Assembly (NCBI GenBank): GCA_051362555.1 | Contig: CM120644.1 | Location: 9,804,954-9,868,953, forward strand | Origin: Lingula anatina | Lineage: Eukaryota; Animalia; Brachiopoda | DNA: 64,000 bases | Reading direction: 5' to 3' | Shown: in pieces, positions 1-45,804 of the stretch | Layout: every line of letters starts with the position of its first letter | Position numbering within the stretch: the stretch's first letter is position 1 | Program-made: the position numbers and the translations under genes | The notes under the pieces: model-generated | What the model saw: the letters and a program-made list of their open reading frames with translations, nothing else | Databases searched by the model: none | What the model was told of the DNA's origin: nothing

Positions 1-200
1 TCCGTCGTGCGACTTTTGGAGGACGCAAACAGCACGTAGAAACTTTTCACCAATTACTTTATTTCTTTCCATCGATCTAGCTACGTCCTAGCCAGACGCA
101 AGGAACCTAAAAACCGTGCATCCAAAACGTAGTTGGGACCTAGGCATTAACCGGACACGAAAAATTAAACCTAACAATAAAATGCAGTTGGCCAACTCAC

Positions 201-273
201 CGTCCGATTCAGCGAACAAATCTATAACTAGCATAGTCACCAAGAGCAAAGCGACTAAGGTTTTCTTCTCCAT
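201..273 (-). CDS. Secreted Arg-rich peptide precursor, paralog 1, exon 1 (signal peptide); remaining exons lie left of the window
   Basis: ATG at 273 reads MEKKTLVALLLVTMLVIDLFAESD+G, then a phase-1 donor GTGAGT at 200. Near-identical to exon 1 of the complete copy at 6886-6958. Confidence 0.8.
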
Positions 274-343
274 GTTGCTATAACGTGTCTCTCTCGGCAG
301 TCGTCTGAACAGGTATGTGAAGTTTCATCGATGCGACGGCTCG

Positions 344-381
344 TTATATAAGCACAGCAAAACCCCACCCAGCTTATGTAA
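344..381 (-). promoter_or_regulatory. TATA box (TATATAA, 344-350) and TTATGTAA bZIP-type site (374-381) of peptide paralog 1
   Basis: About 70 bp upstream of the ATG; conserved in paralog 2 (7032-7038, 7062-7069). Confidence 0.5.
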
Positions 382-2395
382 CTTACACTGTACTACGCGT
401 GACAGAACACACTCTCACCTGATATGAGCAAGAGGCCCACGAGCGTCAGCGAGAGGTGTTCATGGCATATATTGGTGCAGGGTGACAGTGTATTACTTGC
501 CCATACATACCAAAGAAGATGGGGTCTTATCTACCCGTAAAACACCCCTAAAACCAAATGAGAAATTCCAGATCGAGAGGTGTTTCATAGAATATACTCG
601 TCTTTGTAGCTGGTCAGCTGTCGCAAAATTCATATTGCCCATGATTTGCTGAGAACTTGTTTTGAAAGGTCAGCGTGCTTGAACAATATTCAGTCCTTTT
701 ATTTTGTCAGTCTGACTCGGTTGTGCTGCACTCTCACAGTTGGAGCCTGGGACAAATTCGTTAGGTGATTGTTTAAAGCCAAAACAGAAAAGAATAATTT
801 TAAGAGTATTTCTGATGAAGAAACAGTTTTGAAATTTGATTCTAATTACAGTTTAAAATTAATATTAATAAGGATTTATATTACTCCTTTTTAAATATGT
901 ATCATATAATGGATGCCTATATAAAATATATATTAAGAATCGTTCACTTAAAATAAACATTGAAATATATACTGAATAAAAATAACCAGTAACGTGTTTG
1001 TAACTCTTTTTAATTTCCTAAGTTCATGAATGCGCACATTTCATCGAAACATATATAAAAGGATGGAATAAAAGTGTTATTATATCTTTTTTTCCGATAT
1101 CAAGATAAAACATAAGCACCTTTCCATTGACATGTGCTTTTGTTAATAGGTAGGTGTTCCAATCTTTGGGTACATGTATGTATTCCCATGAAACATTAAT
1201 ACAGATGTTATAGTGCGTCCAATCCCATGGCGGGCAATACAGTGATGGTGTGTGCTTCATTGTTTGTGAGTTCAGGTAATATTATGCGAAAAGCTATATT
1301 GTGGATGTGTTCTTTAGATTTTTAAATTGTTCCGCGGCAAGTCCAGGTTGTCATAGCCAGCAAGTATACTCCAGTGTAGATCTGAAGAGGGTTTTGCAAA
1401 TTTCTATCAGATTATTTTTCTTCACTCCGACATGTCAGACCATGCACCAGATACACAGTCTTGGTCGCTCTTTGGAAGAAAATATTCTATATGTACACTT
1501 TTTAAGATTAAACTGATATTGACTCCAAGAACTTTCGCATGAGTCACTTTTTCAATAGTGAAATTTTCAGTCTCAATTGTTTTTTTTTTTTCTAAAATAA
1601 TAATCGGTGCTACATTTTTCTTTAGGATTGATCAGCATATTTTTCTTTTTTGTCTATTCATATAGGTACATGTATGAGACTGCTATAGGGAATTTATCTT
1701 CTATAAGAGGGATAGGTTCTTTTGCGTGGCCAAAATAGCAAATAGCTTATCATTTCTGCTCTATAAGCTGCTTATCTAGACATAAGTACAATAAGATTTA
1801 ACACTTGAAGAAAAATACGCCATCTTACCAGAATGCTAAAATGAATAACACACATCCATACCGATAGAATACGGGAAAGCTGGTGATTACACGAGTACGT
1901 TTTGAATAAGAAGAGGCATTAAATTAATTACAAAACTCGTGAACTTGATCTAAGCTTTATTAATCAACAAGAAGAAAAATTATTAAAAGAAGTACAATAA
2001 AGCTGAACACTCAATGTATACATTGTTTGGGATTTAATTGTATATTACTTAGGATAAGATATGGATATATGTGCTTGCGTATCTGGCATTATATTAGAAT
2101 ATTCTTATTATTATCTCGCATTACGTAATAACAAGTTTTTAACAATTTGAGATTTTTCAATGAAATTATTACAGTGATTGAAAGCTTCAAACAAAGTGAA
2201 ATACCTATGTGATCAATTTTGGTCGGTAATACTTTCATTGTTCTTCTTTAATTAATTTTTAATCAGCTATGTTTTAATATCACTTTGAGCAAAAATCATA
2301 AAATACACGCTTGGGACACAGCAGGAAATAGACATAGATTTTAGGCATTTTACTGTCCATATAGTAATCAATCTAACAGGTCAGAACACTTAATC

Positions 2396-2920
2396 AAGCC
2401 CTTAAGAATTATCGACTTGGAGGCCAATTTCGAAAAAGTTTCTGGCAACTTCAAGGAAGATGCGTTGGAGAGGGGCCTCAATGAAAAAATTGCCTTTAAA
2501 CGTTTTCCTTTGCTTAGATGTTTCAAGATTTTTCATAGTATACAATATGTACGTTCAGCATTGAAAAATAAATTAAGGTATTTCTTTCAATTAGTCGTGC
2601 GTTAGAGCGTATTCTTCGCTCGGTTTACTAGCCGACGTATGGTGTGCAATCCCCAAGGTCGTAGATTCCCTTTTTGCATGCTGACACGCTTCTCAATATC
2701 TCAGCCGGTCTGAAAATTGGGTCATATCCTTGGATGGTCCTTCTCAACTTGCCCTGAAATATTTAACTTCCTCGTTAATATATTCGATTTATTACTAAGG
2801 AGTGAAAGAGATATCCCAATAGTACTAGTATTATATATTAGATGTAACAGTCTTTTAGATGTGGCAAGGTGTTAGGTAAGATAGGCATAGCACTGTCTAA
2901 AATATAACAGGGTGTTAGGT
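2396..2920. repeat. Dispersed repeat, copy 1 (aagcccttaagaat... to gtgttaggt-rich end)
   Basis: Highly similar, same orientation, to about 15215-15745. Confidence 0.85.
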
Positions 2921-3024
2921 ATAGGTGCTAGATGTGATAGTGCTTAATTTGGAATCTTGGAGGTTCAGATTTGACACATGGACAATTCATTTTTACCGTT
3001 TAGTAAATTTTCTAATTGCTTTAG

Positions 3025-3304
3025 GTGTGGGTTTCCCAACAAGACCCGAAGTCTTTGGACTCGACGTTCAAATACCATAGCTTTGTAACAGGATTTGGAA
3101 AATTGTACACAACACCCAAGAAGGTAAGGAATCGGATTTTGATTTTTTAATTGATGTATGATTTAAATCAAATTGATTCTTTTGTTAATATTTTTCTCTC
3201 TTTTATCTCAGCTCACCGACCTAGATGAAGAATCATCTTTACGTCTCTTAGAACAGTTAGAACAACTGAATGAAACTATTCAAAGAAAGCTGAAATCACA
3301 GTAA
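3025..3304 (+). CDS. Two orphan terminal coding exons of an unidentified gene or captured gene fragment
   Basis: Exon 3025-3123 (ttag|...AAG|gtaagg) reads VWVSQQDPKSLDSTFKYHSFVTGFGKLYTTPKK. An 88-nt intron with a strong pyrimidine tract follows. Exon 3212-3304 reads LTDLDEESSLRLLEQLEQLNETIQRKLKSQ*. Both are phase 0 and open. Confidence 0.5.
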
Positions 3305-4900
3305 TTGATGCCGCCAGCGTTCATCAGGGTTGCAAACGTCACTGTTCAAGGTTTACTTTATTGTCCAACGCACAGTATCCTTTTGACTGCGGGTTTTGTG
3401 GATAAATAGATGACATGCAAATGACTAGGTGAATACATGAATAGAATGTCAGGAATAAAGTGCGAAAGAAAATCATGGAAATCGAAAAGACATATGGATA
3501 AAGTTTGTGCTAGCACTAAGGCTGTCCGCCTATTGTACGGCAATGGAGTGCATCGTTAAATGCGAAGCGGAGACTCTGTAAAAAGTGGGGCAAGGCAGCA
3601 ATGTCGCAGCACGAGGGACAGGATTCTGGAAATGAAAAAAATATTAAAGAATCATTGTTATTTCTTTCAGGAACATTCCGGGCCTTCAAAGGCATTATGG
3701 TGAAAGAAAAGATAATACATATATGTATGAATTTAAGTCGATTATGCACAAAATATCCATTCATTTATTCATTGTAAAACTTGTAAAAATGCTAATGCTT
3801 CATAACAACTCTTCGTATGATTTTCATATTTCTCAATTAATTCGTTGTAATAACTCATCAAAAAAATATTAAGCACTAAAATGGCAGTTATCGCAATTGT
3901 TCTGGAATCGGTACTTGTTATCGGATCATGTGACCTCTATAGATGGCCATCATCTGTTATAATCCGTTATGAGATTCAAACGAAAAACCAAACTTATTAA
4001 AAAACCGGGAATAACTTCGAATGTCCAAACGAAATCCATAACTATTGGGAAGTATGGGAAAAGGTTTTTCGTCCCAGGAAAATCTAATTTTTGGCCAAAA
4101 TTAACAGTTGTTTTCCCTAATTATGATTCACCGTTCTTGAAAAAGTTCAATTAAAATTTTCTATGGAAAAAATTTAGAATTTACATTTAAATTGTTGTTC
4201 TTTGTGTAACATAACTGTAAAACTCACTAATTTACAAGTGCAATTTTCACCGTTTTGTATGCAAAACTGACAAAATAAAGAAACTGCACTTCACAAGTAA
4301 CCCAACAATATCGATCGGCGTGGGTTTTATCCGACTGTGCTCAAAACATTAATGATCTATGTGGAATGAATAAAAAACCTATTTGGCATCGAATGATATT
4401 TAATGGATGACATTAAATGTTTTTCATTTTGATCTAGTTTTTTTTTTCAAAAAGACAAAAGAGTAAGGCTATTATACAATAAAAGATCGCATGATTTATT
4501 AGCTCAGTTTTTTAGGTTTGCCCCACCTCAATTCTTTTATGTTTAGAATTATTTTATTTCACGAAAACAAAATTACTTGGAAATATATTGTTTGTTAAGT
4601 TACATAAAGGATTGGCTGAATTCATTAATACCCTTCAATCTTTTTTCCTCTTATAAATCGTTTAAATTTCACGCTCTCACGGTTAAAGACCTAAAGCTTC
4701 AAAACCTGTTAACTTATCTCACGGTATTGTATGGATGGTTCCCAGTGATAATGGTGTTATTGCTGACAATCAAAAGCTTTGATTTGATTAAATGCATGTT
4801 TATTAAATTAATAAACGAAAAACATCCAACAAAAGTAAACTTTAATCGGTTCTTGATTTTTTTTTTTCAAGAAGGCCCTACACCTTCATTGTAGCTCAAT

Positions 4901-4906
4901 TTTATT
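4901..4906 (-). terminator. Probable polyadenylation signal (AATAAA) of peptide paralog 2
   Basis: tttatt on the + strand, about 200 nt downstream of the stop at 5100. Confidence 0.4.
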
Positions 4907-5099
4907 GTCCGTCTTTATAACAGTCATGCATACCAAGTTTATGCCATGATTAAGAACCGTTTGCGTATATCAGGGAACTGAATAATAGGCAACTGGAAGT
5001 CAAATGACCACAGACGAGACAGCAGATGCTAAACGTTTGGTTCTCGTCTGGAGGGCCACGTCTGATTCTCGTGTGATCTTCAGAGTCCAGTTTTGCTTG

Positions 5100-6958
5100 T
5101 TACTCGTGTCCCTCCTCATCGTCAGCATCTTCAACATCATCGTTTGCCAATTGCTCCACCAAGCGGGCCAGCACATATGCCTAAATAAGATACAGAATAT
5201 TAGTTCTTATCTCTCTACCTCTGTAGAAATTAGAAAAAAAACAGAACGACGGAAAATCGTTTAAAAACAACTTGAGAAAAGCTTTGTAATTGAATGGAAA
5301 TTTCACGTTATTCAACATCCTCTTTCACGTCATGGACTCAACTTAATGGCTTATCCAGCGTTATGCGGCACCCTTTGGTTGCCTCCTTCCTGTACCTGCA
5401 CAAAGTTTTGAGCGTTCTGTGGAAGCATTTACCCTGAACTGCTTCTGACAGATGTAAAGAGATCGTGCTATTTTAAATGTTTGTTTATACTGAAGACAGA
5501 GTCTTCAGTAACGTGACAGAGTCCCCCATGATAGAGAGTCCGCTTCCCACTCACTTGTACAGGTAAGCCTCGCCCTCGAGTTAGACCAACTTAGGTCAGG
5601 CTAACCCTAACCATTATAACTAAATAGCCGATTTTCTGTTTACACTGACCCTTAGTTTCGTTACACCGGCACAAAACCTTTTTGGATTCCTTAAAGATAT
5701 TGCTGGTATCGAGAAAATAGTTAATATGATAAAGTCATGTTAACGGGTCTTAGGGTTCAGAATGATACTGACAAAATGGAACTTACTTCCTCACTGGACT
5801 GATCAGCCTCATTTATCAGACTGTTTTCACCTGGAGCTGCTGATGGATCTCTGACAGCTGCACGACGACGACGACGACGACGACTCCAAAATGCTATAAA
5901 ATGATAAAGAGAAAATGTTAAATGTAAGGAAATTTTAAGTAAAGATGCGTGTATAGTTTTCTCCGTGTCCGTGTGTGTATGTGTGTGTGTGGGGGGGGGG
6001 GGGGGTGAGAGAGAGAGAGAGGTGTCAAAGGGTTCATGAATATAGGAAGGACACTTAAGATATAAGATGCAAAAGAATAATGTACTACTATTATATAAAG
6101 AAAACTGCTCCATGTGTCAAGACAACTTACAACTTGCTTTTGAAGTCTGATATAATAATTTGCTAACTCTTAAAACGAGGGTTTAATGGAGTGACATCAA
6201 AAAAGAAGCTGAATAAAAATTTTAAAAAACAATTTACAGTAACCTTAAAAAGCCATTTCTTCAAGCGTTTTTTCGGTAGATCAACACTACGAAGTTTCAT
6301 ATTGCAATTGCCAGTAGAATGCAAATGGTTGTCCAAATTTAATTTACACCAAATTGGTTATTGGCACTTTAAAAGATGTAAAAATACCGCTAGCAAATAA
6401 AGCAGTCAACAACCACAAAAAGAATCCGCGTCTCTTACTTTAACTTTCAAACATTATAATTCAAGAACAAGTAATTTGAAGGAACCTCTCTATTTAGCAT
6501 TAAAAGATACACTGGGCTCACCTGCAGTAGCCAGTATAGTGTTTTGATTGTGATAAAACCGTAAACTATTCGCACAGTTGTTCCTTTTTTAAGCCTAGGT
6601 TCCAACCGAACGTACGGGCTGTTACGTGTGGTCTACTGCCAAACAAAAATGGGGAAAACGTGGGAGTTCGTGCGTGAAGAGCACGTCCGTCGTGCGACTT
6701 TTAGAGGATGCAAACAGAACGTAGAAACTTTTCATCAATAACTTTATTTCTTTCCAGCGATCTAGCCAAGTCCTAGCCAGACGCAAGGAACCTAAAAACC
6801 ATGCGTCCAAAACGTAGTTGGGACCTAGGCATTAACCGGACACGAAAAATAAAACCTAACAATAAAATGCAGTTGGCCAACTCACCGTCCGATTCAGCGA
6901 ACAAATCTAGAACTAGCATAGTCACCAAGAGCAAAGCGACTAAGGTTTTCTTCTCCAT
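5100..6958 (-). CDS. Secreted Arg-rich cationic peptide precursor with acidic C-terminal region (candidate antimicrobial peptide), paralog 2, complete, 86 aa
   Basis: Exons 6958-6886, 5893-5787 and 5180-5100 (73+107+81 = 261 nt), all GT-AG with consistent phases 1 and 0. Protein: MEKKTLVALLLVTMLVLDLFAESDA-FWSRRRRRRRAAVR-DPSAAPGENSLINEADQSSEEAYVLARLVEQLANDDVEDADDEEGHE*. Confidence 0.85.
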
Positions 6959-7031
6959 GTTGCTATAACGTAGTGTCTCTCTCGGCAGTCGTCTGAACAG
7001 GTATGTGAAGTTTCATCGATGCGACGGCTCG

Positions 7032-7069
7032 TTATATAAGCACAGCAAAACCCCACCCAGCTTATGTAA
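7032..7069 (-). promoter_or_regulatory. TATA box and TTATGTAA site of peptide paralog 2
   Basis: TATATAA about 75 bp upstream of the ATG at 6958; conserved between paralogs. Confidence 0.5.
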
Positions 7070-7590
7070 CTTACACTGTACTACGCGTGACAGAACTCAC
7101 TCTCACCTGATATGAGCGAGAGGCCCACTAGCGTCAGTGAGAGGTGTTCATGGCACATATTGGTGCAGGCTGGCAGTGTATTACTTGCCCATACATACCA
7201 AAGAAGATGGGGTCTTATCTACCCGTAAAACACCCCTAAAACCAAATGAGAAATTCCAGATCGAGAGGTGTTTCATAGAATATACTCGTCTTTAAAGCTA
7301 GTCAGCTGTCGCAAAATTCATATTGCCCATGATTTGCTGAGAACAGTCCATTTATTTTGTCAGTCCGACTCGGTTGTGCTGCACTCTCACAGTTGGAGCC
7401 TTGAACAAATTCGTAAGGTGCTTGTTTCAAGCCAAAACAGAAAAAAATAATTTTTAGAGTATTTCTGATGAAGAAACAGTTTTGAAATTTGATTCTAATT
7501 ACAGTTTAAAATTAACATTCATAAGGATTTATATTATCCTTTTTTAACATGTATTATATAATGGATTCCTTTATAAAATGTATATTAAGA

Positions 7591-8081
7591 GCGCATTCTC
7601 AACAAATTAAGCCAGGCTTTACAAAGCCGGTGACCTAAAAATGGCGGACGTACATGAAAGAAAAACCGCCTAATCTTTTAATAGTCTCTCCGCCTCTCAC
7701 GAACATTAATATTTCCGTGAATATCTCTGGTAATATTATCTCCGTAGGTAGTCGATTCATTGCTGCTCTACAGGCCAAATCATTCCTTTTTTCGTCTCTG
7801 TTTTCAAAGATAATAGAACAGAAGAGCTTTTTTCCTTCGATCGCCTTCAGCCGCCATGCTTTCTTCACCACGAGTTTAACTGATGAGCATGCGCACTTAA
7901 TATTTCTCAGGTAGCTTCCGCATGGCGAACGGAGACGCGATTTAATTACTGTACCCCGCAGGGACGACGTGTGGGGAGGCGGAGAGACTATTAAAAGATT
8001 AAGCGGTTTTTCTTTCATGTACGTCCGCCATTTTTAGGTCACCGGCTTTGTAAAGCCTGGCTTAATTCGTTGAGAATGCGC
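7591..8081. mobile_element. Fold-back/MITE element with about 106-bp TIRs (GCGCATTCTCAAC...), flanked by an identical 40-bp direct repeat
   Basis: 7591-7696 is the near-perfect reverse complement of 7976-8081. 7551-7590 equals 8082-8121. The paralogous empty site (899-938) has one copy of the 40-mer and no element. Confidence 0.92.
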
Positions 8082-8756
8082 GTATTATATAATGGATTCC
8101 TTTATAAAATGTATATTAAGAATCGTTCACTTAAAATAAACATTGAAATATATACTGAATAAAAATAGCCAGTAACGTGTTTGTAACTCTTTTTAATTTC
8201 CTAAGATCATGAATGTGCACATTTCATCGAAACATATATAAAAGGATGGAATAAAAGTGTTATTATATCTTTTTTCCGATATCAAGATAAAACATAAGCA
8301 CCTTTCCATTGACATGTGCTTTTGTTAATAGGTGCATGGGTGTTCCAATCTATGGGTACATAATGTATTCCCATGAAACATTTATACAGAAGTTAGTGCG
8401 TCCAATCCCATGGCGGGCAATACAGTGATGGTCTGTGCTTCATTGTTTGTGAGTTCAGGTAATATTATGCGAAAAGCTATATTGTGGATGTGTTCTTTGG
8501 ATTTTTAAATTGTTCCGCGGCTAGTCCAGGTTGTCATAGCCAGCAAGTATACTCCAGCGTAGATCTGAAGAGGGTTTTGCAAATTTCTATAAGATTATTT
8601 TTCTTCACTCCGACATGTCAGACCATGCACCAGATACACAGTCATGGTCGCGCTTTGGAAAGAAATATTCTGTATGTACACTTTTTAAGATTAAACTGAT
8701 ATGGACTCCAAGAACTTTGGCATGAGTCACTTTTTCAATAGTGAAATTTTCAGTCC

Positions 8757-8788
<32 letters not shown>

Positions 8789-10323
8789 GTCTAAAATAAT
8801 AATCGGTGCTACATTTTTCTTTAGGAATGATCAGCATATTTTTCTGTTTTGTCTATTCTTATAGGTACATGCATAGGGAATTTATCTTCTTTAAGAGGGA
8901 TAGGTTCTTTTACGTGGCCAAAATAGCAAATAGCTTATCATTTCTGTTATATTAGCTGCTTATCTAGATATAAGTACAATAAGATTTAACACTTGAAGCA
9001 AAAAATGCCATCTTACCAGAATGCTAAAATAAATAACACACATCCGCCTGGCGTTAAGTACCGGTAGAATACGGGAAAACTGGTAATTACACGAGTACGT
9101 TTAAAATAAGAAAAGGCATTAAATTAATGACAAAACTCGTGAGGTTGATCTAAGCTTTATTAATCAACAAGAAGAAAAATTATTAAAAGAAGTACAATAA
9201 AGCTGAACACTCAATGTATAGATTGTTTGGGATTTAATTGTATATTACTTAGGATAAGATATGGATATACGTGCTTGCGTATCTGGCATTATATTACAAT
9301 ATTCTTATGATCATCACGCATTACATAATGACAAGTTTTTAAACAGTTTGAGATTTTTCAATCAAATTATTACAGTGATTGAATGCTTCATACAAAGTGA
9401 AATACCTATGTGATCAATTTTGGTCGGTAATGCTCTCATTGTTCTTCTTTAATTAATTTTTAATCAGCTATGTTTTAATATCACTTTGAGCAAAAATCAT
9501 AAAATGAACGCTTGGGACACAGCAGGCAATAGACATAGATTTCAGAGATTTTTACTGTCCATACTGTAATCAGTCCAATAGTTGAGAACACTTACAGTAG
9601 TAATAAAAATTAGGTTTCCGTTGTACGACGTTTTAAAAACGTCAGAAAGGTTTTAATCCCTATACTATGAATAGAAGGGGGCGGACAAACAATGGAGAGC
9701 CGTCTAATCCCTTCAAAATTCGAACGCCAAAACACAATAGCTTAGACGTAATAACACACAATACCTTAGGCGAGTGAACCCCATGACGCCTGTTTCTGTG
9801 GTCCAGCGCGAGCACGACAATCCGCTGTGACTAGGTGTAATTAACAGCAGGATACATCAGTCAGTAAGTGCCCATTGTTTGTTGCGGCGATAGGATTATA
9901 CTCCAGTGGCCACCTATCCTTTTGTTCACTAGCTTGGCACACGCAGCTGATCATGTTTTAAGTGTTGCAAGAAAACTGCTAGTTTAATTTAGTATCAGTT
10001 TTTTAATTCAACATGAAGTGTTCTGTGGTCAAAAATTGAATTTGATAGACATGCATCAGCATCGTACATCAGCATGATCAACAAATCATCCCGTCTCAAA
10101 AAGTTTAAAGATGCTCCGTACACAAATTTCCATCATCGCTACCTGTGTAAAAATACATTACTGTTTAGAGATAACAAAGAAAGAAACATTATTAAAACAA
10201 TTTATTCACATTACAAGCTGGCGTGTTGCCTCAATTACTACATTAAGTTACATTTTATATAAAATAATAGAGCGAATCCGTAAAAGGATAATAATAGAAA
10301 GTCTTAATAAATAAATATATAAA

Positions 10324-10490
10324 CAGGCCCGCAGCCAGGGGGAGTTCGGGAGGTTCGAAAAACACCCCTTTTGCTTAAAAAAGGCCTACTCTGGGTAAAA
10401 TTTGACATAAATACATGGGGATTTTTCGGTAAAAGGTCCACTTTTTCAGAAAAAGACACTCCCTCTTTAAAACTGCTGGCTACGGGATTG
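10324..10490. mobile_element. Short MITE, CAGGCCCGYAGCC family, copy 1
   Basis: Termini CAGGCCCGCAGCCAG / CTGGCTACGGGATTG; internal aaaaggtccac...cagaaaaaga shared with 29179-29359; ataaa on both flanks. Confidence 0.7.
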
Positions 10491-11158
10491 ATAAATAAAT
10501 AAATAAAAATATTATTTAAAGAATGAAGTAAATAATTAGGTTACATTAAGAATCAAATAAAAAATAGATAAAAATTAGATGATTTAAATCATTAAATTAA
10601 ATTAATAAATAATAAATAAATTATGATTTAATAATTGAATGAATAAATCGCTGTGAAGAAATAATCATTGTCGCAGCTAACGCGGTGAGTGTCAACCCAC
10701 ATAACTTATAACTCCTTGATTCAACGTACTTTCATAAACATGTAGTGTGACCACACTGTCAGCCACCCCCCTTGTTGCACGTTGCAAGCGATTTGTCTCA
10801 TAACTATGACAAGGCGTTCTTTTTTCTTGTTGTTGTTTAAAAACGGACCACTTTGTCAAGGCTAATTGCTTAGCTCCCTGCGCGTCATATGTACTTAGCT
10901 CTTTGCGCGACCTAGGTAAACGCTAAGATATGAATGTTAGACCGGGTAGTTGATTGTTTTGCCCGGGCGCCGCACTTATGCTTTCTTACTAGAGCGATCT
11001 AGAACAAGTCGCTAGTTTGCCCTGTTTGTAACTAAAGCAAAATATGTTCGACATGCCGTTTCTGCACGACAGCCGGAGACACAGTAATTGTATAAGGCAT
11101 GGTTTAAGCTTGTTCGAGAGATGATAACAGTCGCGTTTAACAAAAGATAGTAAGACCC

Positions 11159-12854
11159 TACCCTCTACCAGGGCGACTGACCTGAAGGCTTTATTCTCGC
11201 TCTGCTTGAGCTTCGCTTCGCGACGATGTGCTAACTGCACGTTACGCAACCTGTCTAGGCTCTGCTGTCTGCAAAAACCAGTCACGTGGTTGGAAGGGGT
11301 TTTCCGAAGTGAGCCGTATCCCACAATTCCGTACTGCAGCTTTAAAAAAATGTCGGCTATCACGCCCGTTGTTTCCTCACATACCTTGAAGTATTAAATA
11401 AACGTACCGGTCGGTACGTCAATTAATTTTTCAAATTTCTTCCCATTGGTACGCTCCATTTCCACCCAGTACGCTTATTAATTTTTCAAAAATCTACCAC
11501 CCGGTATGTTTATTAAATACCTATCGTTGGGAAAATATACAAGTACAAGTCAAGTTTTTTATTTTCCTAAATTTAAGTATAATGAGAAGAAATATCGGTG
11601 CAGCTACTGTTCGACATTCGCACTGGAAAGTAGGTCAAGCTGAAGTCGCTCTCTGAACACTACGATACATGCGTCATCTGATTTCAGTTCCTATAAATAG
11701 ACGTACTTTCTCCTCAACAGTGACAACTGCTCATGTATATCGATCGAATGATGTAATGTCGCAAGGTGATAGGATCATATTTATAGCTAAGAAGGTCATT
11801 TCAAGTGCAGCAAAGAAGTTGTGTCTGTTTTCAAACGTCAATTATTTCATGCCGATTTATGATATAAACGATGTTAAATCACATTTCTATGTAAGTTTAA
11901 CCCTTAGGAGTTTACAGGTATGCAAAACACTCCTTATATCTGAGAATAAATATACTTTGAATATTATAACGTCTCCGTATGACTATCGGAGGCGGCTTAG
12001 GTGCGATATATCTGGGTCTTCGGACCCTGGCGATTATTAAATTTAACTCACGGCAAATTTTTTTATTTTTTGAAAATAAATTAGATATCTTGTTTTTAAG
12101 ATAAATAAATTATAATACTGAGTGAATTTTACCTGGTGAAAATTTTTTTAACACTGATAAATAGCTAGTTTTTTTTCTTTCTCTTCTTTATTTTTATTTA
12201 TTTATTTCATTTTTTTTTTGGGGGGGGGGCGGGGGGAGGAGTGGTGTGAAGGTTTTTTCCGGGAAGTACTTTTATTCCATCCAGTACTTTTATTAAATTT
12301 CGAGATTTTTTTCCACCCAGTACTTTTATTCCATCAGTACTTTTATTAAACTTTGAGATTTTTTCCACCCAGTACATTTTATTCCAACATACACGTTCTT
12401 CCCACTGACTGCAGCACTCACCGCTTCAAATTAATATTCTGTCAGCCCTTCGAAATTCCAAAATTTGCTTACTATCCGATCTGCTTCTTCACGCTCCATA
12501 CCGTAACAATGCTTTCAGGCTGCTACTGCACCAGTATTTATACCTCTGCAACTACTTCAGGGGATTCCACAGTTAGCTGAAGTAATAAACTATTCACTGG
12601 GGGCTATTTTTATCTGTGTCAGAAGAGCAAGTGATTAAGGTCAGAGCAATTAACTGTCTTGATTGCTGTCACGCAGACTTGGACTGGACCTGCCAAGTGG
12701 CAGTGCCTGAGCAGTTATGCAAACAATTACCAGCCATGTAATCAACCTTGAGATTTCTGTACAGGGTGACTTAGAGTTAAAATGACAATCTATCTAGCTA
12801 GAGACATATCTGTGAATATCCGTAAAAATCTATCAGTCGCCCTGGTAGAGGGTA
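11159..12854. mobile_element. Non-autonomous DNA transposon with 22-bp TIR TACCCTCTACCAGGGCGACTGA and 9-bp TSD (MULE/Mutator-like by TSD length)
   Basis: Perfect TIRs 11159-11180 and 12833-12854; GTAAGACCC at 11150-11158 and 12855-12863. The right ~300 bp is homologous (inverted) to 45805-46110. Confidence 0.88.
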
Positions 12855-13236
12855 GTAAGACCCCCTCCTCTTTAACTGATGTCTTACACTGTTAATATTG
12901 ACCGCACTTTCATATATTATGTAATACACTGTCAGACTTTCCCCTGTTGCACGTTGGCGTTGGATTGTACTTGTGCCTCTGTCAATGCACCTCATTTAGT
13001 TTAAATATTTTTACCGCATAAACCTTTGTGGTTAAGAGTTATTAGTTTAGTAGTAGAAATAGGATGCTTGGACAAAAAGCTTCTAGTCAACTCGCTAAGA
13101 CCTAGGGTGTGATGCTGCTATCATTCGAGGAAACACCTACACTGAATCCTTTACCTGAAGTCCCCCTAGCTGAAACAAAAAATGCCCCTTGAACCGGTCC
13201 ATTTTTAAAGCGTCGAATCATTTTTGATATCATTGA

Positions 13237-13448
13237 AGCCTCCTTTACACTGGACGGCGTCCTTTCTGCGTCCAGCAGTACGACTCCATTTGAAAGTTAA
13301 AAAATTATAATACTTTACGTGCCGACAACTGGCCGGTCGATAAGGATTCATTCTGATACAAAATCAATGCCCGTGCCTCCTTATTAAGACCACAACGATT
13401 CCAAATTTCATGGTCGCAGAAAGGACGCCGCCCAGTGTAAAGGGGGTA
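13237..13448. mobile_element. PIF/Harbinger-like MITE
   Basis: TIR ...CCTTTACACTGGACGGCGTCCTTTCTGCG / CGCAGAAAGGACGCCGCCCAGTGTAAAGG...; TGA on both flanks (3-bp TNA TSD). Confidence 0.75.
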
Positions 13449-15214
13449 TGAGCGTTAAAGCGTAGGTTTATTCATCATGATCTATTTTGTAAACAATACT
13501 TGCCTAGATTTTACTTGGATTGATCATTGTCACTGTTTGGCTACTCGCCTATAATGCGTGCTGAATGACAGACAACTTATAAATATTATCTGTGTTACTG
13601 TGTTTATGACCACGTTAAGTTAAAATAGAACGGTATCGGTGATTTAATCCATCCAACATATTTATATTTCTTCTTTTAAGTCCAGTGTTAGGTTAACATC
13701 AAGTTAAAGCAAGCCTTGCAGATTGATTTTGTTTAAATTTTCGTAAATTAAGTAAAGCTAAGTAAAGCCTGTTTCTACATGTAGTTCATCCACACTATAA
13801 AACTGCATGAAGGATAACAAGTCTCTGAAGCCAATTAACTTTCACAATGCCCTGTGTTTTAGAGTCCCATGTTATACTGTACAATAAAATGAGTATGGCC
13901 TGAGAGAAATATAAATATGAAGCCGTGTATGAAGATGTTTCAAATAATAAAAATCAAGAATTTATACATGTTAGGTACATGCACATCACTTGATAAGTCA
14001 TTTCACAAAAATGGCATCTAATTTTTCAGATAAACCCCCACTTTTATCGATCTCAACGCCTTGTCTGATGTTTACATGTAGGCGTATACTCCAATATTTA
14101 TTGCGAACAATATCAATAGCGACTCGAGATCGTTGCCTGTTTTTCACACTTTTACACAAACTCATGAAGGGTTAATAAAAGGATTCGCGTTGCGACATCT
14201 ATCTCTTTCTTTCGAACAAGAAAATTAAGGGCTGACCCGAAGTAAGCTTTCATAACTAATTTCTCTTTGACTGTACAGGGGTATATTGTAATTACTCCAC
14301 TTGGTCGCCTCCATTGTCTTGTAACATTGACAAAGAATGTGTTTTCACACGCTAGTTTACATAACTCCTTTGCCTTGTGTCTTTATCAAGGTTATAATCA
14401 GTTTGAATAGGTTGTCTTGCCTCACTTAAAAAGGGAGTTGTTCTTCACACTGGTTGTTGCCTACATTTGTGTAACTTATGCTAACCTACTTTGTATAAAT
14501 ATGGTTTTAATAAGTCGCCAAAACTATGACACTAGTGAACATTGTGTATCAAACATTTTGATACGATTAAATAAATGTGCAAGAAGGATTACGGAATGAG
14601 TTACTATTTACCTCTCCCCACGCGCCCTTCAAAAAATGCTTTTTTGATTTCGAAATGAATTTGTTTTTAACGCAAAGAAGTCCAATACCCCTTTCACGAC
14701 TCAGTCATTGTACAGCATGTTATATTACTCTTTACCCTTTTTATATGACACTGTCTCTGTTTCTCTCCCCTTTTACTTTCTCTTGTTAGAAAGAGGGCAA
14801 ATAATTAAGCATTCAAAATATGCATCACCAATCTTCAGAAAAGAATGAGTGAATGAACCATTGGGCTGGCCCACAACGTCCGACACAGCAGAATAAATTA
14901 AATAACAGCTTTCACAGATTTAACTGCAGTTAGCTGTACAGCGTCACTATATACATAATCTGCTGCACGCGCGAAGCTGTTGAACAAAAGGGTAGTTCTC
15001 TAGGGAAGACCTTTTGTTTACATAAGTACTCTAAGGGGGCGTGACTAACCAGGCGACAAGAGGATTAGGCTAGTCACTATATTCCGTCAAATTCGTTTAG
15101 CGACCCTATCATTATCACACTCCCTCTATTGTATTTTCTGACGTTATAATTGTATCTAATCTTCTTATGGTAGATGGAAAAAATGCACACATATATAATC
15201 TTATGACTGTAATT

Positions 15215-15850
15215 AAGCCCTTAAGAATAATCCACTTGGCGGCCAATTTCGAAAAAGTTTCTAACAACTCCATGGATGATGCGTTGAAAATTGAAAAAAA
15301 ATTACCTTTAAACGTTTTTCATTGCTAACATGTTTCAAGACTTTTCATAGGATAAAATTTGGATGTTCAGCATTGAAAAATGAATTAAGGTATTTTTTTC
15401 AATTAGTCGTGCGTTAGAGCATATTCTTCGCTCGGTTTACTAGCCGATGTATGGTGCGCAATCCCCGAGATCGTAGATCCCCTTTTCGCATGCTGACACG
15501 CTTCTCAATATCTCAGCCGGTCTGAAAACTGGGTCAAATCCTTGGATGATCCTTCTCAACTTGCCCTGAAATATTTAACTTCCTCGTTAATATATTCGAT
15601 TTATTACTAAGGAGTGAAAGAGACTTCGGTTTATTACTAAGGAGTGAAAGAGATATCCCAATAGTACTAGCATTATATATTAGATGTAACAGTCTTTTAG
15701 ATGTGGCAAGGTGTTAGGTAAGATAGGCATAGCATTGTCTAAAATATAACAGTGTGTTAGGTGTGACGGTGTGTTTGGTGTAATATTGTATAAGGTGTCA
15801 CGCTGTGTTAGGTGTGAGAGTGTGTTAGGTATAACATTGTGTTCGATGTG
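15215..15850. repeat. Dispersed repeat, copy 2, ending in a degenerate gtgtgttaggtgtga minisatellite
   Basis: Matches 2396-2920; carries an internal ~29-bp tandem duplication (tttattactaaggagtgaaagaga x2, 15600-15655). Confidence 0.85.
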
Positions 15851-15859
15851 AAATGGTAT

Positions 15860-18800
15860 TTATAACTTCACCTGCATACAGGGATGCTTCATGACTGGTT
15901 CAACAATTTCATGACATTTTCGTGAGCAGTGTCTCCCATTCCTTACGTCACAGACCTTCTCAAACTCCGCATTCTTCTTTACTTTGTCAAGCACACCATA
16001 GTACTTAGCCAGTCGACAGTCTCCGTATTCTAAATGTAAATTAGTTTACTTCTTAGCTACGACTGTCAATCGCAAAATACCCTTTATATTATAAACATTG
16101 AAACGAAATAGAAATGAAACGAAAAATAAACTTCTCAATGCAAAAACTCAGACTAAATTGTCGAATGAAAAAAAATGGAATAGAACATCCAACCCCAGGC
16201 TAGATAAATTAGCTACGCCAAAAGCTTAAAAAGAAATCAATCACCCTATGACCCGGGGTGGATTCATTGATAAAGTTGTAAATATGGCAAATGTGGTGAC
16301 ATTATAAATACGACTCTTCTAAACAAATGTAAAGAACCAATGACTTCAAAGTTTTTGCTATCTGTTTTAACAGATTTTAATCTTTTTCATAAGTTAAAAA
16401 AAGCGCATCACTGTGGAAACATGGAGGTAATAGTAAAGGATAATGAAAAACATTTACCTTGACCCCCACAACTGTCATAATTGTCTAACTGAATGCAGTC
16501 TGGGTTAAAAGGCTGACGTGGATAGTAGGTAAAGATAGCAAAACACATTTCATCCTGAAATGTACAGCAACCAGATGTTTAATAATACGTAAAACCGACT
16601 GAAAATGTTCTAATATTGTCTTAAAAGATGCCACTTTCACGGCATAAAATGCGCGTTAAGTATTTATGTGGCGGGATGGACATCCCTGCTTGGGCCTCAG
16701 TCAATGAATTTCTGGATGCATTTGCTTTGAGATATTAGCGTGGCGTAGCATGCCCTTCAGCTGGCAGTTAGGTGACTGAGGCCCAAGCAGGGATGTCCAT
16801 CCCGCCACTGCCGCCATTGTAATGAGAGTGGCAGATTTCGACCCGTTTTCCCTACCTGCGTTCCCAGCCCAAAATAGGTTGTGTTGGCATGTCTCTGCTT
16901 TTTACCACGCTTTGAGGTAAATGTACAATATGTGCGGAACTCATCACCTGCAGCAAATGATAATTCGTTTTGTTACTTCTTTCTTTATTTTTTAACTACT
17001 TGCTGCCGTATGGAACAAGGTATGCTATAAGTTTGCATGTTTTTTAAATTGCATGCAATATTTTAATCATTGCTTACTGATCGGAGGACCGTCGCAGTTA
17101 AAAAAAAGATACCTACAAGGCAAAACCGTTTTTACCGTACGTAGCTTTTTTTAAATTAAAAAACTCACCTTTTTTAAATACGATGGGAGGGTCAAAGGTG
17201 TGCAGATTCGGCGTCTCGTAGGTATAGTATGGATCATCTGATACAACTCTCAGTAGTTTGCCATCTCTCCATTGCTCTAATTTCCCTGCTATACCTGGAA
17301 AACATTAAAATAGAGCACATCTTTGGTATATGCCTGTCTCTAAAATTGTTATTAAAATGCAGTTTCAAATTTTGGATTTTGTCTCTTTTTGGCATGAAAG
17401 ATTATATTTCACTTCAACTCTTTTCAGCAATGCCTTTTATTGGCAATGTCTCTGAAATTCCAACGAAATTATTTTGTTGGTCGAATGTTTGACTTTATAC
17501 AGTGCTTGTATCTTTATGAATTTGAAATAAAGAGCTAAACCCGTTTACATAGACTGAAAACTTCTGTAATCTAGCAAGTTCAGTGCAAAAGAAACAGTCA
17601 TGACTTGGAAGACAATTACACAACACCCATGAAGTCCGTCACTGCAAACATTGGAAAGTTGGATCATTTTTTCTATGTTCACTGGAATGTGCTTTTTTGT
17701 TAAAACTTATAATGAGAACGTAATTTCCTGTAAGTGTCTGTACATATGCAGCTTTGCTGTCTACTTAGTTCTGCGCATTCCAATAAATCACAGTGTTGTT
17801 TTAGCTCCACTGTACCTTGATAATGCATGTGCATAAGAACTGAGGTCACATTGATGTCCTGATTAAACTTCTCCTCGGTACACTTGGACTGGCACACCCC
17901 GGACATGGTCAAACTGTCCACTCCTGGGGGAATCTCCAGGGCAAACTGACCAAATGTGCCCGTCCCCTCGGAGAATGGACGCAGGCGGTCAGTGTAGAAC
18001 ATGCGTATTCCGGAGTTGTCTGGAAATTTGGTTGAATTTTCAATATCTATATTATGCAGGATTCGACCTTGATGCTGTGATACATATGCATTTGTAAAAG
18101 TCTAAAATTTCTATGTTTAAGCCCGACAAGGATTTTTGGTTCAGAATAAAAAAATCCTGTCGACTTCACTTGGTGAGTCAGAAAATTTCATTTAAAAAAT
18201 CTGTGTTCGTTCCTTTTGGCCGATCATTGACAGTGTGTCATAATAATAATAATAATGATAATAATAATAATAATTATTATTATTATTATTATTATTATTA
18301 TTTGTATAAATGTGATATTTCTGGGAATACAACCTACCTGTATAATCTGCTCTCAGCTCTGGGTTGTTCCAGTGTATTTCCACAGCCAGATATTCATACG
18401 AGCCTTTTCCGAATGGAACCCCTGTATTCTTTGAAAGACAATATCCCTCCATCCCAGTGGACCAAACTGTTATTGTTTGACGGCACTCGGGTAACATGTT
18501 ACATAGATGGGGGCCCTGGTATTTTCAAAACGATACGGTCTTGAATAATAAAATGACTTTACATCTAAAGTAATAAATAAAAAATAGACGTAACCCGGTA
18601 AACACATTTACTGTACGTATTTGTATTTGTCAGCGTAACCCCTATGGCATGCATACACATATTAATTGTGTTTCACAAAATCTTTTTCATAATATTAACA
18701 AAACAAACATAAATATAAAACTAGTCTTCTGGTACTTCCTGTAAAAACATGTTATGATGATAAACACTTGGTGGGTAATACATTTAAGTAAAAGAAAAAT

Positions 18801-20873
18801 CACTGGATAAATTACCTTTCTAAGTGGCGTTCTCGAGCACCCATAAACGACCATGTGGTGAAGAACCATGTTGTTGCCTATGATGGGTTCAAAAGCGACA
18901 GCGTGGTACTCCTTGTCAGTTGGAACCTGCAATGGAACAGCGATATGCTAATGTGTGATCCGAATATGAACATGAGCGTATGGTTTAAATTATTTTTTCA
19001 TTGTGATGGGTGAATCCTGTTTTGGCTGTATGTATCGAGTCAGCTCACTTCGCGTCTTGCATTTTCTAGTATGTGCTCCTTCCTCTCTTCCTCCAAATTT
19101 ATTTTGTTTTCATAGTTTATTGTTTTTCGGACTAAAGCTGTATGATTACCTTGAAAACATTACATATGTAAGTTGTTTCCTCTGCTGGCACCGAGGTTTC
19201 TGGGAACCTGAGGTCAAAGGTCTTCACGTGCGACTCCTTGGTGGCGGTGCAGTTGTATTCTCCCTGGCATTCGTAAGTGAAATTCTGAACACGACGACAA
19301 TGTGCCGAGTCCACCGGTTCACAAATACCTGAAGAGACAAGTTAGCTTATAAAGCCATATTGGATAAAATTTTGAACATTAAAGTATTAGTATTCATTAT
19401 TCATTCATAATTCCGATTTGTTGCAAATAAACATTTTTTACCTGGATGTGTAATATTTTCGGTCCTTAGAACGGCCGAAACCGAGTTTTCTTGCCAGGCA
19501 CAGTTAGGGTCTCCAAGTTCTTCACCGTTTGTCTTCCCGTCCTGATCAGAGTCCTTCCTACACAGTTCAGAGGTCCACTGGTAATTAGCGGCCTTAAAGT
19601 CCTGAAGAAGAGCACCAATTCTACTAATCAACTATAAAGAAGTATATTATTCGGATTGAAACCATTCCGGAAGGCAGTGCGAGAAATGACCTTGAAGAGA
19701 CCGGGAAAAGAACATCGTTTAAGTGAACGACTTACTAATTTCTCAAGACTATTTCATTTATGGTGACTGTCAGAAAAGTAGGATCATTGGCTGCTTAGAA
19801 GGAGAAATGTAATGTTTAGATCTACTGCTTGGAAATGCCTTAAGAATGAGTCAGTCAAGGGAAAATCTTACATTGGGCACATTTTAAGCTCTGTCGCGCG
19901 ACCACCTTGACCTATTCGCTTTCAAGTTCTGAGGTGACTGGTTCACGTTAATATTAAAATGTATTACATCTCATTAATAGCATAGGATATAGAAACAAGT
20001 ATAACTGTACATATAAAAAACAGTATGTAAAACAGAAAGGCGTTATTTAGCAGATCAGTGTGTTGGTTGAATTGTTCAATGGAGATGTCTTTGGCTCAGT
20101 AATTTGACAGACTACCAGATAAACATGTACCAGACTCTAAGATAAGTAGGAAGTTAGATATATGGGCAATTAATAAATGATAAAATGAATAAAAAATATG
20201 AAAAGAGTTGGCCCTACAAGTATAACTAGTAACCATGGTGCAAGGGGATAAACATGTATATGGAAACGGTAGATTGGCCGACGATGTTTTCAAACAGGCG
20301 TCTGTGACAAGATTTGTTATTAAGGTCTAAGATAAGATAAATTTTGGTAAACAATGAAGACCCAAAAGTCGTATTTGCTACCATGTAATACAGATAAATA
20401 ACTGAATAAATAATAAATACATTAATGAATTAATAGAAAAAAATTGATACCATAGCGCCAAAATAAAATACATAAACGAGTAAATCCATAAAACAAACCT
20501 TTAGAAACAAACAGATGGATATTTAGAAAAAAATTATTGAAGAGATTGATCTATGAACAAAAGAATGTATTAATCAAAATTCACAGACGGATGTCACTGA
20601 CTGTGCCGTGAACCTTAAATGTAGCCGGCCAACCAACACTTCTTTGGTGAAATTAAGCAAATACAAACCCAGCCAACCTACCAGTCCAAACTGGTTATTG
20701 GGCTGTCCGCCTGCCAGCTTGACGTGTCCCAATGCCAGCCATTTGGTGTTCTCCTTGCATGGGTGGGGGACGTTCTGGCCGTTAGGAAGCCTATTACCAA
20801 AGTATGGGTAAGCACTAGAAACGGTTATGATCGCTGCGAAAACACAAACCAAAAGTGCCACGCGATTCGACAT
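15860..20873 (-). CDS. Secreted temptin-domain / DBH-like (MOXD1/tyramine beta-hydroxylase-like) copper type II ascorbate-dependent monooxygenase
   Basis: Exons 20873-20682, 19601-19442, 19328-19150, 18926-18816, 18515-18338, 18019-17816, 17294-17169, 16947-16856, 16554-16458 and 16029-15872 (or read-through to TAA at 15860), all GT-AG with matching phases. Signal peptide; temptin motifs (LPNGQNVPHPC, LGH, NQFGLDF, LCRKDSDQDGKTNGEELGDPNCAW, THPGICEP); copper ligands in LHHMVVYGC, EIHWNNP, MHMHYQG and DEMC. The 3' end is uncertain. Confidence 0.92.
16668..16808. mobile_element. Small intronic palindromic element with perfect 36-bp inverted repeats
   Basis: GTGGCGGGATGGACATCCCTGCTTGGGCCTCAGTCA (16668-16703) and its reverse complement (16773-16808); no clear TSD. 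Confidence 0.7.
18241..18302. repeat. (TAA)n followed by (TTA)n microsatellite (self-complementary)
   Basis: Directly visible; intronic. Confidence 0.9.
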
Positions 20874-21721
20874 TTTGGTGACTGCTCTGGCCCGGTAGTT
20901 GAAGCGTTGATAAACGGCAGGAAGATATGGCAGATGCTGCTGCGATGAGACCAGCCGTCCTCAAATTCTGCAAATATATGAAATAAAGTGAATAGTCAGG
21001 TTAAGCCACTCAGATGGAGCAAGGCTTTACCACTTCTTGTGAACTGATGCCCTGTTCGCGCTTCTTCCCGGGTTGTCAGTCCTTTAATCCTAACGGACGC
21101 GCCAACCCTTTTTAACCCCGTCTGCTATCACATGGTTAAACACACGTTTCCTGACTAAGATTTATTTTAAGTCCTGGTATCAAAACAGGTGATCAAATCT
21201 TGGTGATCGTCACTCTTATCGACTTCCAACAGCAGATCTTGCAGTGACTCAATCCCTTCTACACCAAGTGACCTGCCGGAGTTGACATGCTGAAGGCACG
21301 TGTACTTCACCATGTCAGAAACGGTGTCGTTATTTGATTTTCTGGTGGATTGATTTGGATTTGTTTCAGTAACGGGGCACGTTACTTTTTGGTCTCTTTG
21401 CAGTTGTATACCTTTGGCGTTGTGAAACCTGGATGACTCTCAGTTGAATCAGGTAAATGTACTGAGTAAATTTCTGAAGAAACATACTGATGACATTTGT
21501 TAAATACAAAATGGCCACCAACAACCAAAGAAATAACAATTTCCTCTTAAATGGCTTAAAAGGTTGAGTTATTTCACTTTCCAACATAGTTATGCATGTA
21601 ACCGTGACATGTCATTACCTATAATGCCATGGGGCTTAACTTTGGGTGCTGTACATGTCAACACTGAAGTTTTATGCAGCAGTTGAAACTAAAGACGGTT
21701 TCACAATATGTTCGCCAAGTC

Positions 21722-29178: not shown

Positions 29179-29359
29179 CAGGCCCGTAGCCGGGTGAGGG
29201 GGGGGGATGGGGTTGGGGGGTTTGAAAGAACACCCCCTTTTTGCCGGGAACAGGTCCCCTTTGGTTAAAGTTTTATCTAGGTACACGAAGGTTTCATGGT
29301 AAAAGGTCCACCGTTTCAGAAAAAGAACCACTCTTTTGAAATTGCTGAACACGGGCCTG
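29179..29359. mobile_element. Short MITE, CAGGCCCGYAGCC family, copy 2
   Basis: Termini CAGGCCCGT / ACGGGCCTG; flanks catgt / tatgt; internal similarity to 10324-10490. Confidence 0.7.
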
Positions 29360-30463: not shown

Positions 30464-30686
30464 GTAAGCGCTGTTTGTTGTATGAAAGACGGGATACTTG
30501 GGATTTCATTCTCGTATTAAAATATACAGTTGCTGATTAATTAAGAATGATGTGATCATTACATTTATTTATTTATTTATTACTTGTTAACTCATTGATA
30601 CATTGAACTTGTTTTCCCTTAATTAGTCTGTTGATTACGTTTTTAACCACAGTTTTTCATCCTTTCAGATAAGACAGTATTCCAAG

Positions 30687-30792
30687 ATGAAAACTCTCCT
30701 GGTAGTTTTATTTTCCATTGTATGTCTAGCCAGCAATGGTAAGTACATGTTTCTTTATTCTCTGTCTCTTTCTTTGCGTTTTAAACTATTTC

Positions 30793-30866
<74 letters not shown>

Positions 30867-33800: not shown

Positions 33801-35258
33801 TTTTGATTGTTCTCTTACAGCAACAGAATACGAGTGTTCAAGATTCCCAGAAAACTGCGGTAAGCAATCGTGGTGAAATCTAAATTGTCTTTTTGAATTA
33901 TTTTTAAAGTAACAGTTACACTTTGCAATCTTGGACGACGCACTTGTTGCACTGTGTCATATTGCTTCAAAATTAATAACATGAATCAAACCATTATATT
34001 ACATAATACATGTAAATGGTTTTAGTTTTACTTTAAAACACTTTGTGAAATACCCCGTTTAAAATTTTGGAAAAACAATGTACCGAGCGTACCGAATAGG
34101 AAAGATAGTGACAGTTTGACTATATTTTGTTCATTAGGTCGTGAGAATAAATGCGGATCAACCGTCCTCGCTTGTCAAAATGGCGGCACTCCAGACTACG
34201 ATAACTGCAGGTGTCAGTGCCTACCTCAGTGGACCGGGGCCAGCTGCCAATCACGTGAGTGAATTGCATATGAGCACCCCAATATCTGGATACCAACTTA
34301 GTTTGACACTTGATGGACAAATCATTTATTCTCCTCCCCTTCAACTATAGCTCTTTGAATCTGTACATCAGTAGTTTGTTCGCTACCAGGAACACATATA
34401 TGTGTATACATGTAATTAACGCTTCACGTAATAACCTTGTCCCATTTGTATCGTAGTAATAAATTTGATAAAACTTGATGAAAATGAAGCCTTGACACAC
34501 AGTGCATTCGTCCGCCCACCTAACACATCCAACACATTTGTCTTCTCCAGCCAAGTGTCCAGTTGTTCAACAATGTGAGCAGGGAAAACCATTTGACTAC
34601 TCAACATGTTCCTGTCAATGTGGAAAATACTTTAGTGGGGCTAGATGTGAAATACGTAAGTAGACTTTAATTTTTATATCTTGTACTTTCATTCGACATG
34701 CCAATAATCATCAAAAGAATAACGTTTGCATTTTAATGTCTGACAAGGCCACGGTATGAATAAAAAACGTAAGGTAGATAATAGTATAAATTTAATTCAG
34801 AAAGGTAGGCATTGGCAAGGAGATTCCAAAACTATCTTGCATCTTAAAACAAGCACCCTTAAACGCATTACAAATTGAAATAATGCCCCAAAAGCTAGAA
34901 TGTCACATACTACATGTGTCTAGCGGTCTTCAGAAAAAAATGACAACTACACGGAACATCCACCAACACATACAAGCCAGTGGCCTAATCTCTCACGCTA
35001 CCGCAATGTCTCAAGCATTGATTGTCTCAACTAACGCATTTTCTTGATGTCTTTTCCAGCTAACTGTAGAGCTATGGGCGCCAACAGCTTGGACAGGTAC
35101 TCTGCATGGTGTTCAGATCCCAACAACACGCCAAAATATTGTGACTACAGACTCTCGGGGACAACTGATCTGATCAAATACGCAGCATGTCCAGTATCAT
35201 GCGGGGTGTTAGAAGGTAAGTTATGGCACCTTCTGTCTTTCTTTCTGTCACTTCCCAT

Positions 35259-35289
<31 letters not shown>

Positions 35290-35674: not shown

Positions 35675-35736
<62 letters not shown>

Positions 35737-45777: not shown

Positions 45778-45804
45778 ATGATATAATATAATATGCCTAA
45801 ACAC

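Follow-up and report, generated by a model that had tools for sequence, protein, structure and literature searches.

Short secreted precursors in which a signal peptide is followed by a cationic and then an anionic region have been described in ascidians and mussels. In Ciona robusta, the linear cationic antimicrobial peptide (LCAMP) precursors, such as KH.C1.640, KH.C7.94, KH.C5.577 and the Ci-MAM family, are Cys-free and 50-100 aa long, and 17 of 22 carry an anionic tail (PMC7387483). KH.C1.640 and KH.C7.94, which begin with a Trp/Phe-x-Ser-Arg-Arg-Arg-like sequence, were lethal to yeast as well as to E. coli and S. aureus, and one of the two works at 500 mM NaCl and is inducible by lipopolysaccharide (PMC7387483). 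The myticalins and modiocalins of mussels, which are lophotrochozoans, combine a signal peptide with an Arg-rich cationic and an anionic region in three exons, and their genes are duplicated with variable gene content (PMC5577615). A Trp-Ser-Arg-Arg-Arg motif is also found in CL390 of Aurelia, a secreted protein with arginine repeats (PMC5744923, PMC4334923). Here we describe a predicted peptide gene of the signal / cationic / anionic layout in the brachiopod Lingula anatina, together with a second copy of its 5′ region, in a 64,000-bp stretch of contig CM120644.1 (assembly GCA_051362555.1, positions 9,804,954 to 9,868,953 of the forward strand; hereafter the window). The explanation that we favour by a small measure combines a tandem duplication with a secreted arginine-rich peptide likely to act in antimicrobial defence.

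Two direct copies of the 5′ region of a peptide gene

Comparison of the window with itself by blastn gave two long direct matches, 1-938 with 6686-7590 (1368 bits) and 899-2392 with 8082-9594 (2192 bits; both E = 0.0), and a third direct match of 2391-2920 with 15210-15762. The left and right copies, hereafter copy A and copy B, lie on the same strand and in the same order. When 1-2392 of copy A was aligned globally with 6686-9594 of copy B, 117 of 2342 columns were mismatched (5.0%; 62 transitions and 55 transversions, Kimura two-parameter distance 0.052), with 12 indel runs. The third match differs at 41 of 523 columns, and over the whole block minus insertions there are 163 mismatches in 2887 columns (5.65%) and 16 gap runs. 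Along the block, the divergence climbs to 8-12% at 2101-2700.

The copied region contains the start of a gene on the minus strand. From the left edge of the window, copy A comprises the first 200 bp of intron 1 (1-200; 11 differences from copy B in 200 columns), which continues past the edge, the coding part of exon 1 (201-273), which encodes a signal peptide with Ile17 and keeps its GTGAGT donor intact, and the 5′ leader with a TATA-like box at 343-350 (274-350, minus strand; none of 77 columns differs, with one 3-bp indel). Upstream DNA follows at 351-2392, homologous to 7039-9594, and distal upstream DNA at 2391-2920, homologous to 15210-15762. Exon 1 of copy B lies at 6886-6958, also on the minus strand; a single change in 73 nt, C/A at nt 49, replaces Ile17 with Leu17, and 6,685 bp separate one start codon from the other. 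The original prediction that exon 1, part of intron 1 and ~2.1 kb of upstream DNA are present twice at a spacing of ~6.7 kb, with signal peptides that differ only by Ile/Leu at residue 17, is thus borne out.

High identity in non-coding sequence, which had also been proposed, holds at ~95%, whereas near-perfect identity is limited to exon 1 and the promoter. Only one of 200 columns is mismatched at 201-400 compared with 116 of the other 2142 columns (Fisher p = 0.0005, for a window chosen post hoc), and at 201-350 one of 150 columns is changed (P = 0.003 against the background rate and 0.09 against half that rate). This conservation suggests that copy A is functional now or was until recently. 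When each peptide exon was searched against the window with tblastn, the left copy was represented by exon 1 alone; the copying of the whole gene is therefore something that we infer.

The block had been drawn to end at 9590, but the homology resumes at 15210-15762, past an insertion of 5,615 bp, and copy B also contains an insertion of 531 bp. The latter (7551-8121) has 116-nt inverted arms at 7581-7696 and 7976-8091 (95%) and is flanked by identical 40-bp direct repeats at 7551-7590 and 8082-8121, while the site is single in copy A, near 894. A perfect 40-bp direct repeat at such a palindromic insertion far exceeds the usual target-site duplications of transposons. The larger segment (9595-15209), whose ends are CAGT...ACTG, lies between TA dinucleotides: copy A has one TA at 2389-2390, where copy B has TA, the 5,615 bp and TA again before the homology continues. 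We rejected the possibility that 2391-2920 is an unrelated dispersed repeat, since it adjoins the proximal block at the TA that copy B has twice, and since the window contains no third copy of it.

The 5,615-bp segment contains pieces bounded by inverted repeats at 9914-14995, 11158-12855 (with a 7-bp direct repeat) and 13239-13446. Together with the doubled TA, which we take to be the signature of a TA-targeting transposon family, this makes a decayed, nested transposon insertion the likely origin of the segment. Its terminal inverted repeat is only suggestive because six lengths were tried and 163 of 2000 random pairs score as well at 60 nt (7, 4, 1, 7 and 57 of 2000 at 12, 20, 30, 100 and 150 nt, respectively). 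No Pfam match was obtained for four open reading frames of the segment, and none from Rfam over 1-17000. Alternatively, copy A may have lost the segment by deletion at a 2-bp microhomology. Dispersed repeats link the segment to distant parts of the window (12552-12856 with 45803-46111, 78%; 10348-10486 with 29215-29355, 72%), which is consistent with mobile DNA in the segment.

The HSD17B7 junction and the origin of the two copies

The homology between the copies ends in a short minisatellite, at ~2925-2945 in copy A and at 15860 in copy B. In copy B, the right end of the block is formed by distal upstream DNA with a 17-bp minisatellite (15210-15860, the minisatellite at 15749-15851), and in copy A the homology to 15750-15860 fades inside a short GTGTTAGGT minisatellite at 2921-2945, where the junction of the duplication would lie. 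There is no N in all 64,000 bases and hence no marked assembly gap between the copies, including at this junction, while a filled gap would stay invisible.

About 85 bp to the right of the homology end, we found two plus-strand exons of HSD17B7 (3-keto-steroid reductase), the only exons of another gene between the copies. The penultimate exon (3025-3123), with intact AG and GT, matches residues 269-301 of the Lingula anatina protein P0001 at 32 of 33 positions, and the last coding exon with its stop (3212-3304) matches residues 302-331 at 29 of 30. The protein search behind this assignment gave one candidate, P0001 (331 residues), which matched at 61 of 63 residues; in the window, Ser288 is replaced by Phe and Val324 by Ile. 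No further HSD17B7 exon was detected in the window by tblastn with the 331-residue P0001 (other hits E > 2), and a PDB search with an HSD17B7 exon gave no match. P0001 and P0002, the protein of the C7orf25 homologue in the window, are both listed on one 430,084-bp contig, suggesting that the two genes are neighbours in the reference and that an intact HSD17B7 is probably close by. If both exon pairs exist, HSD17B7 could have two alternative 3′ ends.

Isolated 3′ exons beside the homology end are the expected trace of a tandem duplication whose breakpoint fell within an HSD17B7 intron. A tandem duplication of a 6.7-kb unit is the probable reading of the two blocks, because the collinear homology has a TA site that is empty in copy A and filled in copy B, and because the HSD17B7 3′ exons stand without upstream exons in 64 kb. 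As in a true tandem, the copies are direct, collinear and adjacent, with one junction. The unit would begin within the HSD17B7 intron, 3,745 bp before the left edge of the window, take in the last two exons of HSD17B7 and the peptide gene, which lies tail to tail with them, and end ~2.7 kb upstream of where the peptide starts. With the HSD17B7 exons as the breakpoint, copy A would once have contained exons 2 and 3, predicted at -898..-792 and -1585..-1505, respectively, and an HSD17B7 exon pair joined to the rest of that gene is predicted at -3660..-3381. Copy B would have gained the 531-bp and 5.6-kb insertions after the duplication, while the promoters and first exons of the two copies hardly diverged. 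As a duplication it is ordinary; its practical value is a junction pinned to ~25 bp and exact predictions for the neighbouring window.

Of the earlier view of this locus as a young, tandemly duplicated array, a tandem arrangement stands as the best reading, supported by the HSD17B7 junction exons. "Young" has to accommodate a divergence of 5-6%, with 16 indel runs, and the two insertions that came later, and for an array or copy-number expansion only two copies are in evidence. The window offers no support for a third copy, for an altered mature peptide or for a venom.

Several points weigh against a tandem duplication. The left end of the unit, like exons 2 and 3 of copy A, lies beyond the window, and the case is judged from assembled sequence. 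The two blocks could be two alleles of one locus that the assembler set end to end; both insertions would then be heterozygous structural variants and there would be one gene. We regard this as unlikely but by no means negligible. Lingula is heterozygous (1.6%, PMC4595640; 1.99%, PMC13425148), and C7orf25 in the window differs from P0002 at 6-7 of ~520 residues, which indicates that haplotypes differ appreciably. In long-read assemblies, 61-92% of false duplications share one scaffold, and our locus resembles the heterotype class in that nearly identical blocks adjoin, part of a gene stands at the join and the species is heterozygous (PMC9516828). The differences between the copies spare exon 1 and the promoter, a pattern equally expected between alleles. 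One-sided insertions are common between alleles in marine invertebrates, and large ones are what keeps assemblers from collapsing alleles. In contrast to the false duplications of vertebrate assemblies, which are mostly separated by gaps and sometimes by wrongly filled sequence (PMC9516828), the Lingula blocks show no gap at the junction or in its vicinity, where the substrate for a misjoin is just a few tens of minisatellite bases. The copies differ by 5.0-5.65%, or 2.5-3.5 times the published heterozygosity, which is above the 1.5-1.8 times normal heterozygosity reported for false duplications (PMC9516828), with the limit that the baselines are genome-wide k-mer values from other animals and that non-coding DNA is more diverse. 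Under a simple coalescent, one non-recombining locus surpasses 3.1 times the mean ~4% of the time, and loci that stay unmerged are a sample biased towards high divergence.

The HSD17B7 exons allow another order of events, in which a copy of the peptide gene, perhaps its 5′ part only, was inserted into the intron before the penultimate exon, so that 3025-3304 would be the working HSD17B7 3′ end with copy A nested in it and possibly truncated. Splice sites, frame and stop are kept in both exons, and the two changes in 63 residues, equally likely under constraint and neutrality, fit an orphan and a working copy alike (Poisson 0.127 vs 0.130). We had also considered these changes as proof of a second HSD17B7 copy and discarded them as such (Fisher p = 0.21 against C7orf25). 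An insertion of this kind is improbable: it requires non-tandem local copying of at least 2.9 kb that lands in the same orientation 2 kb from its source, whereas a tandem duplication would give the same order in one event.

The peptide gene and its predicted function

More interesting than the duplication is the gene itself, an apparently unannotated brachiopod precursor with the cationic defence layout of ascidians and mussels. The model of the complete copy B, on the minus strand, has three exons, GT-AG introns of 992 and 606 bp and 261 nt of coding sequence for 86 residues. The coding part of exon 1 (6886-6958) encodes the signal peptide with Leu17, signal-like by composition with a mean Kyte-Doolittle value of 3.2 in the hydrophobic core, and a TATA-like box lies at 7031-7038, 73 bp before the start. 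Exon 2 (5787-5893) encodes a Phe-Trp-Ser-Arg7 head, a linker and an acidic Ser-Ser-Glu-Glu end before a GTAAGT donor, and exon 3 (5100-5180) encodes 26 residues of net charge -9 and the stop, beyond which AATAAA occurs at 4901-4906 and 4799-4804 (194 and 296 bp away). Intron 1 is in phase 1, and intron 2, after Ser-Ser-Glu-Glu, in phase 0. The charge is +7/+8 in the head and then -6 and -9, giving an acidic remainder of net -15, and there is no Cys. All seven arginines are encoded by CGT, making the run a (CGT)7 microsatellite (5862-5882, minus strand) whose length should vary by slippage. Among seven frame-keeping candidates for exon 2 between exons 1 and 3, the one at 5787-5893 has the best acceptor and pyrimidine tract; we set aside the other six, four of which use the same donor, for their weaker acceptors, and an earlier donor, GTGAAA, as a weaker site that moves exon 3 out of the acidic frame. 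The gene is likely genuine and unannotated.

We searched for homologues exon by exon. A word search with exon 2 and six intron-coded residues among proteins of 75-2000 aa gave 16 candidates, none at E ≤ 10, which suggests that the precursor is absent from annotated proteins of at least 75 aa, a collection that includes Lingula proteins. With phmmer, exon 2 had no match at E ≤ 0.001 among 1.84 billion representatives; Pfam gave no family for any of the three exons, and the ESM Atlas no usable match. These empty searches do not prove novelty, because a 35-residue low-complexity query is weak. Our literature search, which did not take in Gerdol et al. 2018, reportedly the main paper on Lingula immunity and one that could describe the gene, yielded no account of it or of a brachiopod peptide with such a layout. 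A word search of a review of marine invertebrate antimicrobial peptides (PMC10608444) returned neither "brachiopod" nor "Lingula", and the main text of the botryllin paper, which has no wording on an Arg run, offers a general parallel only.

With 86 aa, a signal peptide by composition, no Cys and a cationic region followed by an anionic one, the precursor has the layout of the Ciona type, with which it also shares one or more aromatic residues before Ser-Arg-Arg-Arg and the lack of a dibasic site between head and tail (PMC7387483). Unlike the Ciona LCAMPs, it comes from another phylum and its head is a pure Arg7 run of 10-14 residues with a mean hydrophobicity below 0; the likeness seen is one of layout. 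Myticalins have a first exon of 5′ untranslated region only and a second with signal and mature peptide, whereas the Lingula signal is in exon 1 and the head in exon 2 (PMC5577615). The Lingula precursor also lacks the Lys-Arg before the tail and the Pro-rich mature region of myticalins, and its head is shorter than their 23-42 residues (PMC5577615). Compared with Aurelia CL390, it has a single motif, no second Trp and an acidic tail; here the likeness seen is in the motif.

The signal peptide would be cleaved after residue 25, and in the stored precursor the acidic tail (net -15) would keep the head (net +7 to +8) masked until cleavage removes the tail. The freed Trp/Arg head would bind anionic microbial surfaces and enter cells, with no amphipathic pore. 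Cell entry is typical of Trp/Arg cell-penetrating peptides, and designed ones resemble the Trp/Arg7 head. We consider cell entry more plausible than a pore, and place a role of the copy B peptide in antimicrobial defence, argued by analogy, a little short of an even chance, because the head is insufficiently hydrophobic and the Ciona segments with arginine runs are weak or inactive. The original prediction of an antimicrobial-type locus keeps a single basis, the signal / cationic / anionic layout.

Several observations count against defence. Averaged over the head, hydrophobicity is -0.11 to -0.31, below the 0-0.6 window of Ciona LCAMPs. Over 18 residues, the Ciona window is hydrophobicity 0-0.6, moment 0.1-1.0 and charge 3-10 (PMC7387483), and the first 18 residues of the Lingula peptide, calculated with our own script, give -0.112, 0.257 and +7, respectively; the value for KH.C7.94, an active peptide, likewise lies just below zero, at -0.033 (PMC7387483). 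The three most arginine-run-like Ciona segments were inactive or weak on E. coli (PMC7387483). Upstream of either copy, a pattern search gave no NF-kB-like site, and the exon-by-exon searches gave no homologue.

The duplication may also be real and its product not antimicrobial but a signalling peptide, as proposed for the motif peptide of CL390, or a matrix peptide that would bind the apatite shell through its acidic and likely phosphorylated tail. We consider this rather unlikely. A short motif peptide of the arginine-repeat protein CL390 induces strobilation in one Aurelia strain (PMC5744923, PMC4334923), while the motif is missing in another strain and only five residues are common to the Lingula head. 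For the shell, the tail of net -15 and the exon 2 end in Ser-Ser-Glu-Glu before a phase-0 intron are suggestive. Vertebrate SCPP genes have Ser-x-Glu at exon ends and phase-0 introns throughout; the Lingula exon 2 end is similar, but intron 1 is in phase 1. Lineage-specific low-complexity shell proteins exist in Lingula (PMC13425148), whereas neither SCPP orthologues nor secreted acidic shell proteins were reported there by Luo et al. (PMC4595640), and the peptide motifs are absent from one supplement file of each of two shell-proteome papers. It is highly improbable, on our estimate, that this is a duplicated, lineage-specific apatite-shell peptide with a phosphorylated Ser-Ser-Glu-Glu tail and a polyarginine head tuned by CGT slippage, convergent with the SCPP peptides of tooth and bone and missed by shell proteomics as small and unannotated. 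That brachiopods have a genuine family of short Trp/Arg defence peptides, variable in copy number and not yet described, is a better, still doubtful, prospect. If active, the Lingula peptide would carry the signal / cationic / anionic design into another phylum.

Neighbouring genes and repeats

Matches of neighbouring genes to Lingula anatina proteins are at 97-99%, and the HSD17B7 and C7orf25 matches point to L. anatina or a very close Lingula as the source of the window. To the right of the duplicated block lies a Temptin-domain copper monooxygenase gene (17200-20960, minus strand; Pfam Temptin_C, Cu2_monooxygen and Cu2_monoox_C), followed by a gene for a CAP-domain secreted protein (30670-36810, plus strand; PF00188), whose later exons appear EGF- and ShK-like by eye. 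One of the 6-7 differences in ~520 residues between the C7orf25/UPF0415 homologue (38167-41635, minus strand) and P0002 is at an exon boundary; its long exon has 13 in-frame residues that are absent from P0002 isoform X2, a gap that reflects the isoform. An open frame of 479 codons at 62242-63681 (plus strand) encodes a fibronectin type III domain as well as a hydrophobic stretch and is probably the final exon of a gene for a membrane protein. A 146-bp satellite is present in ~4 copies at 53940-54535.

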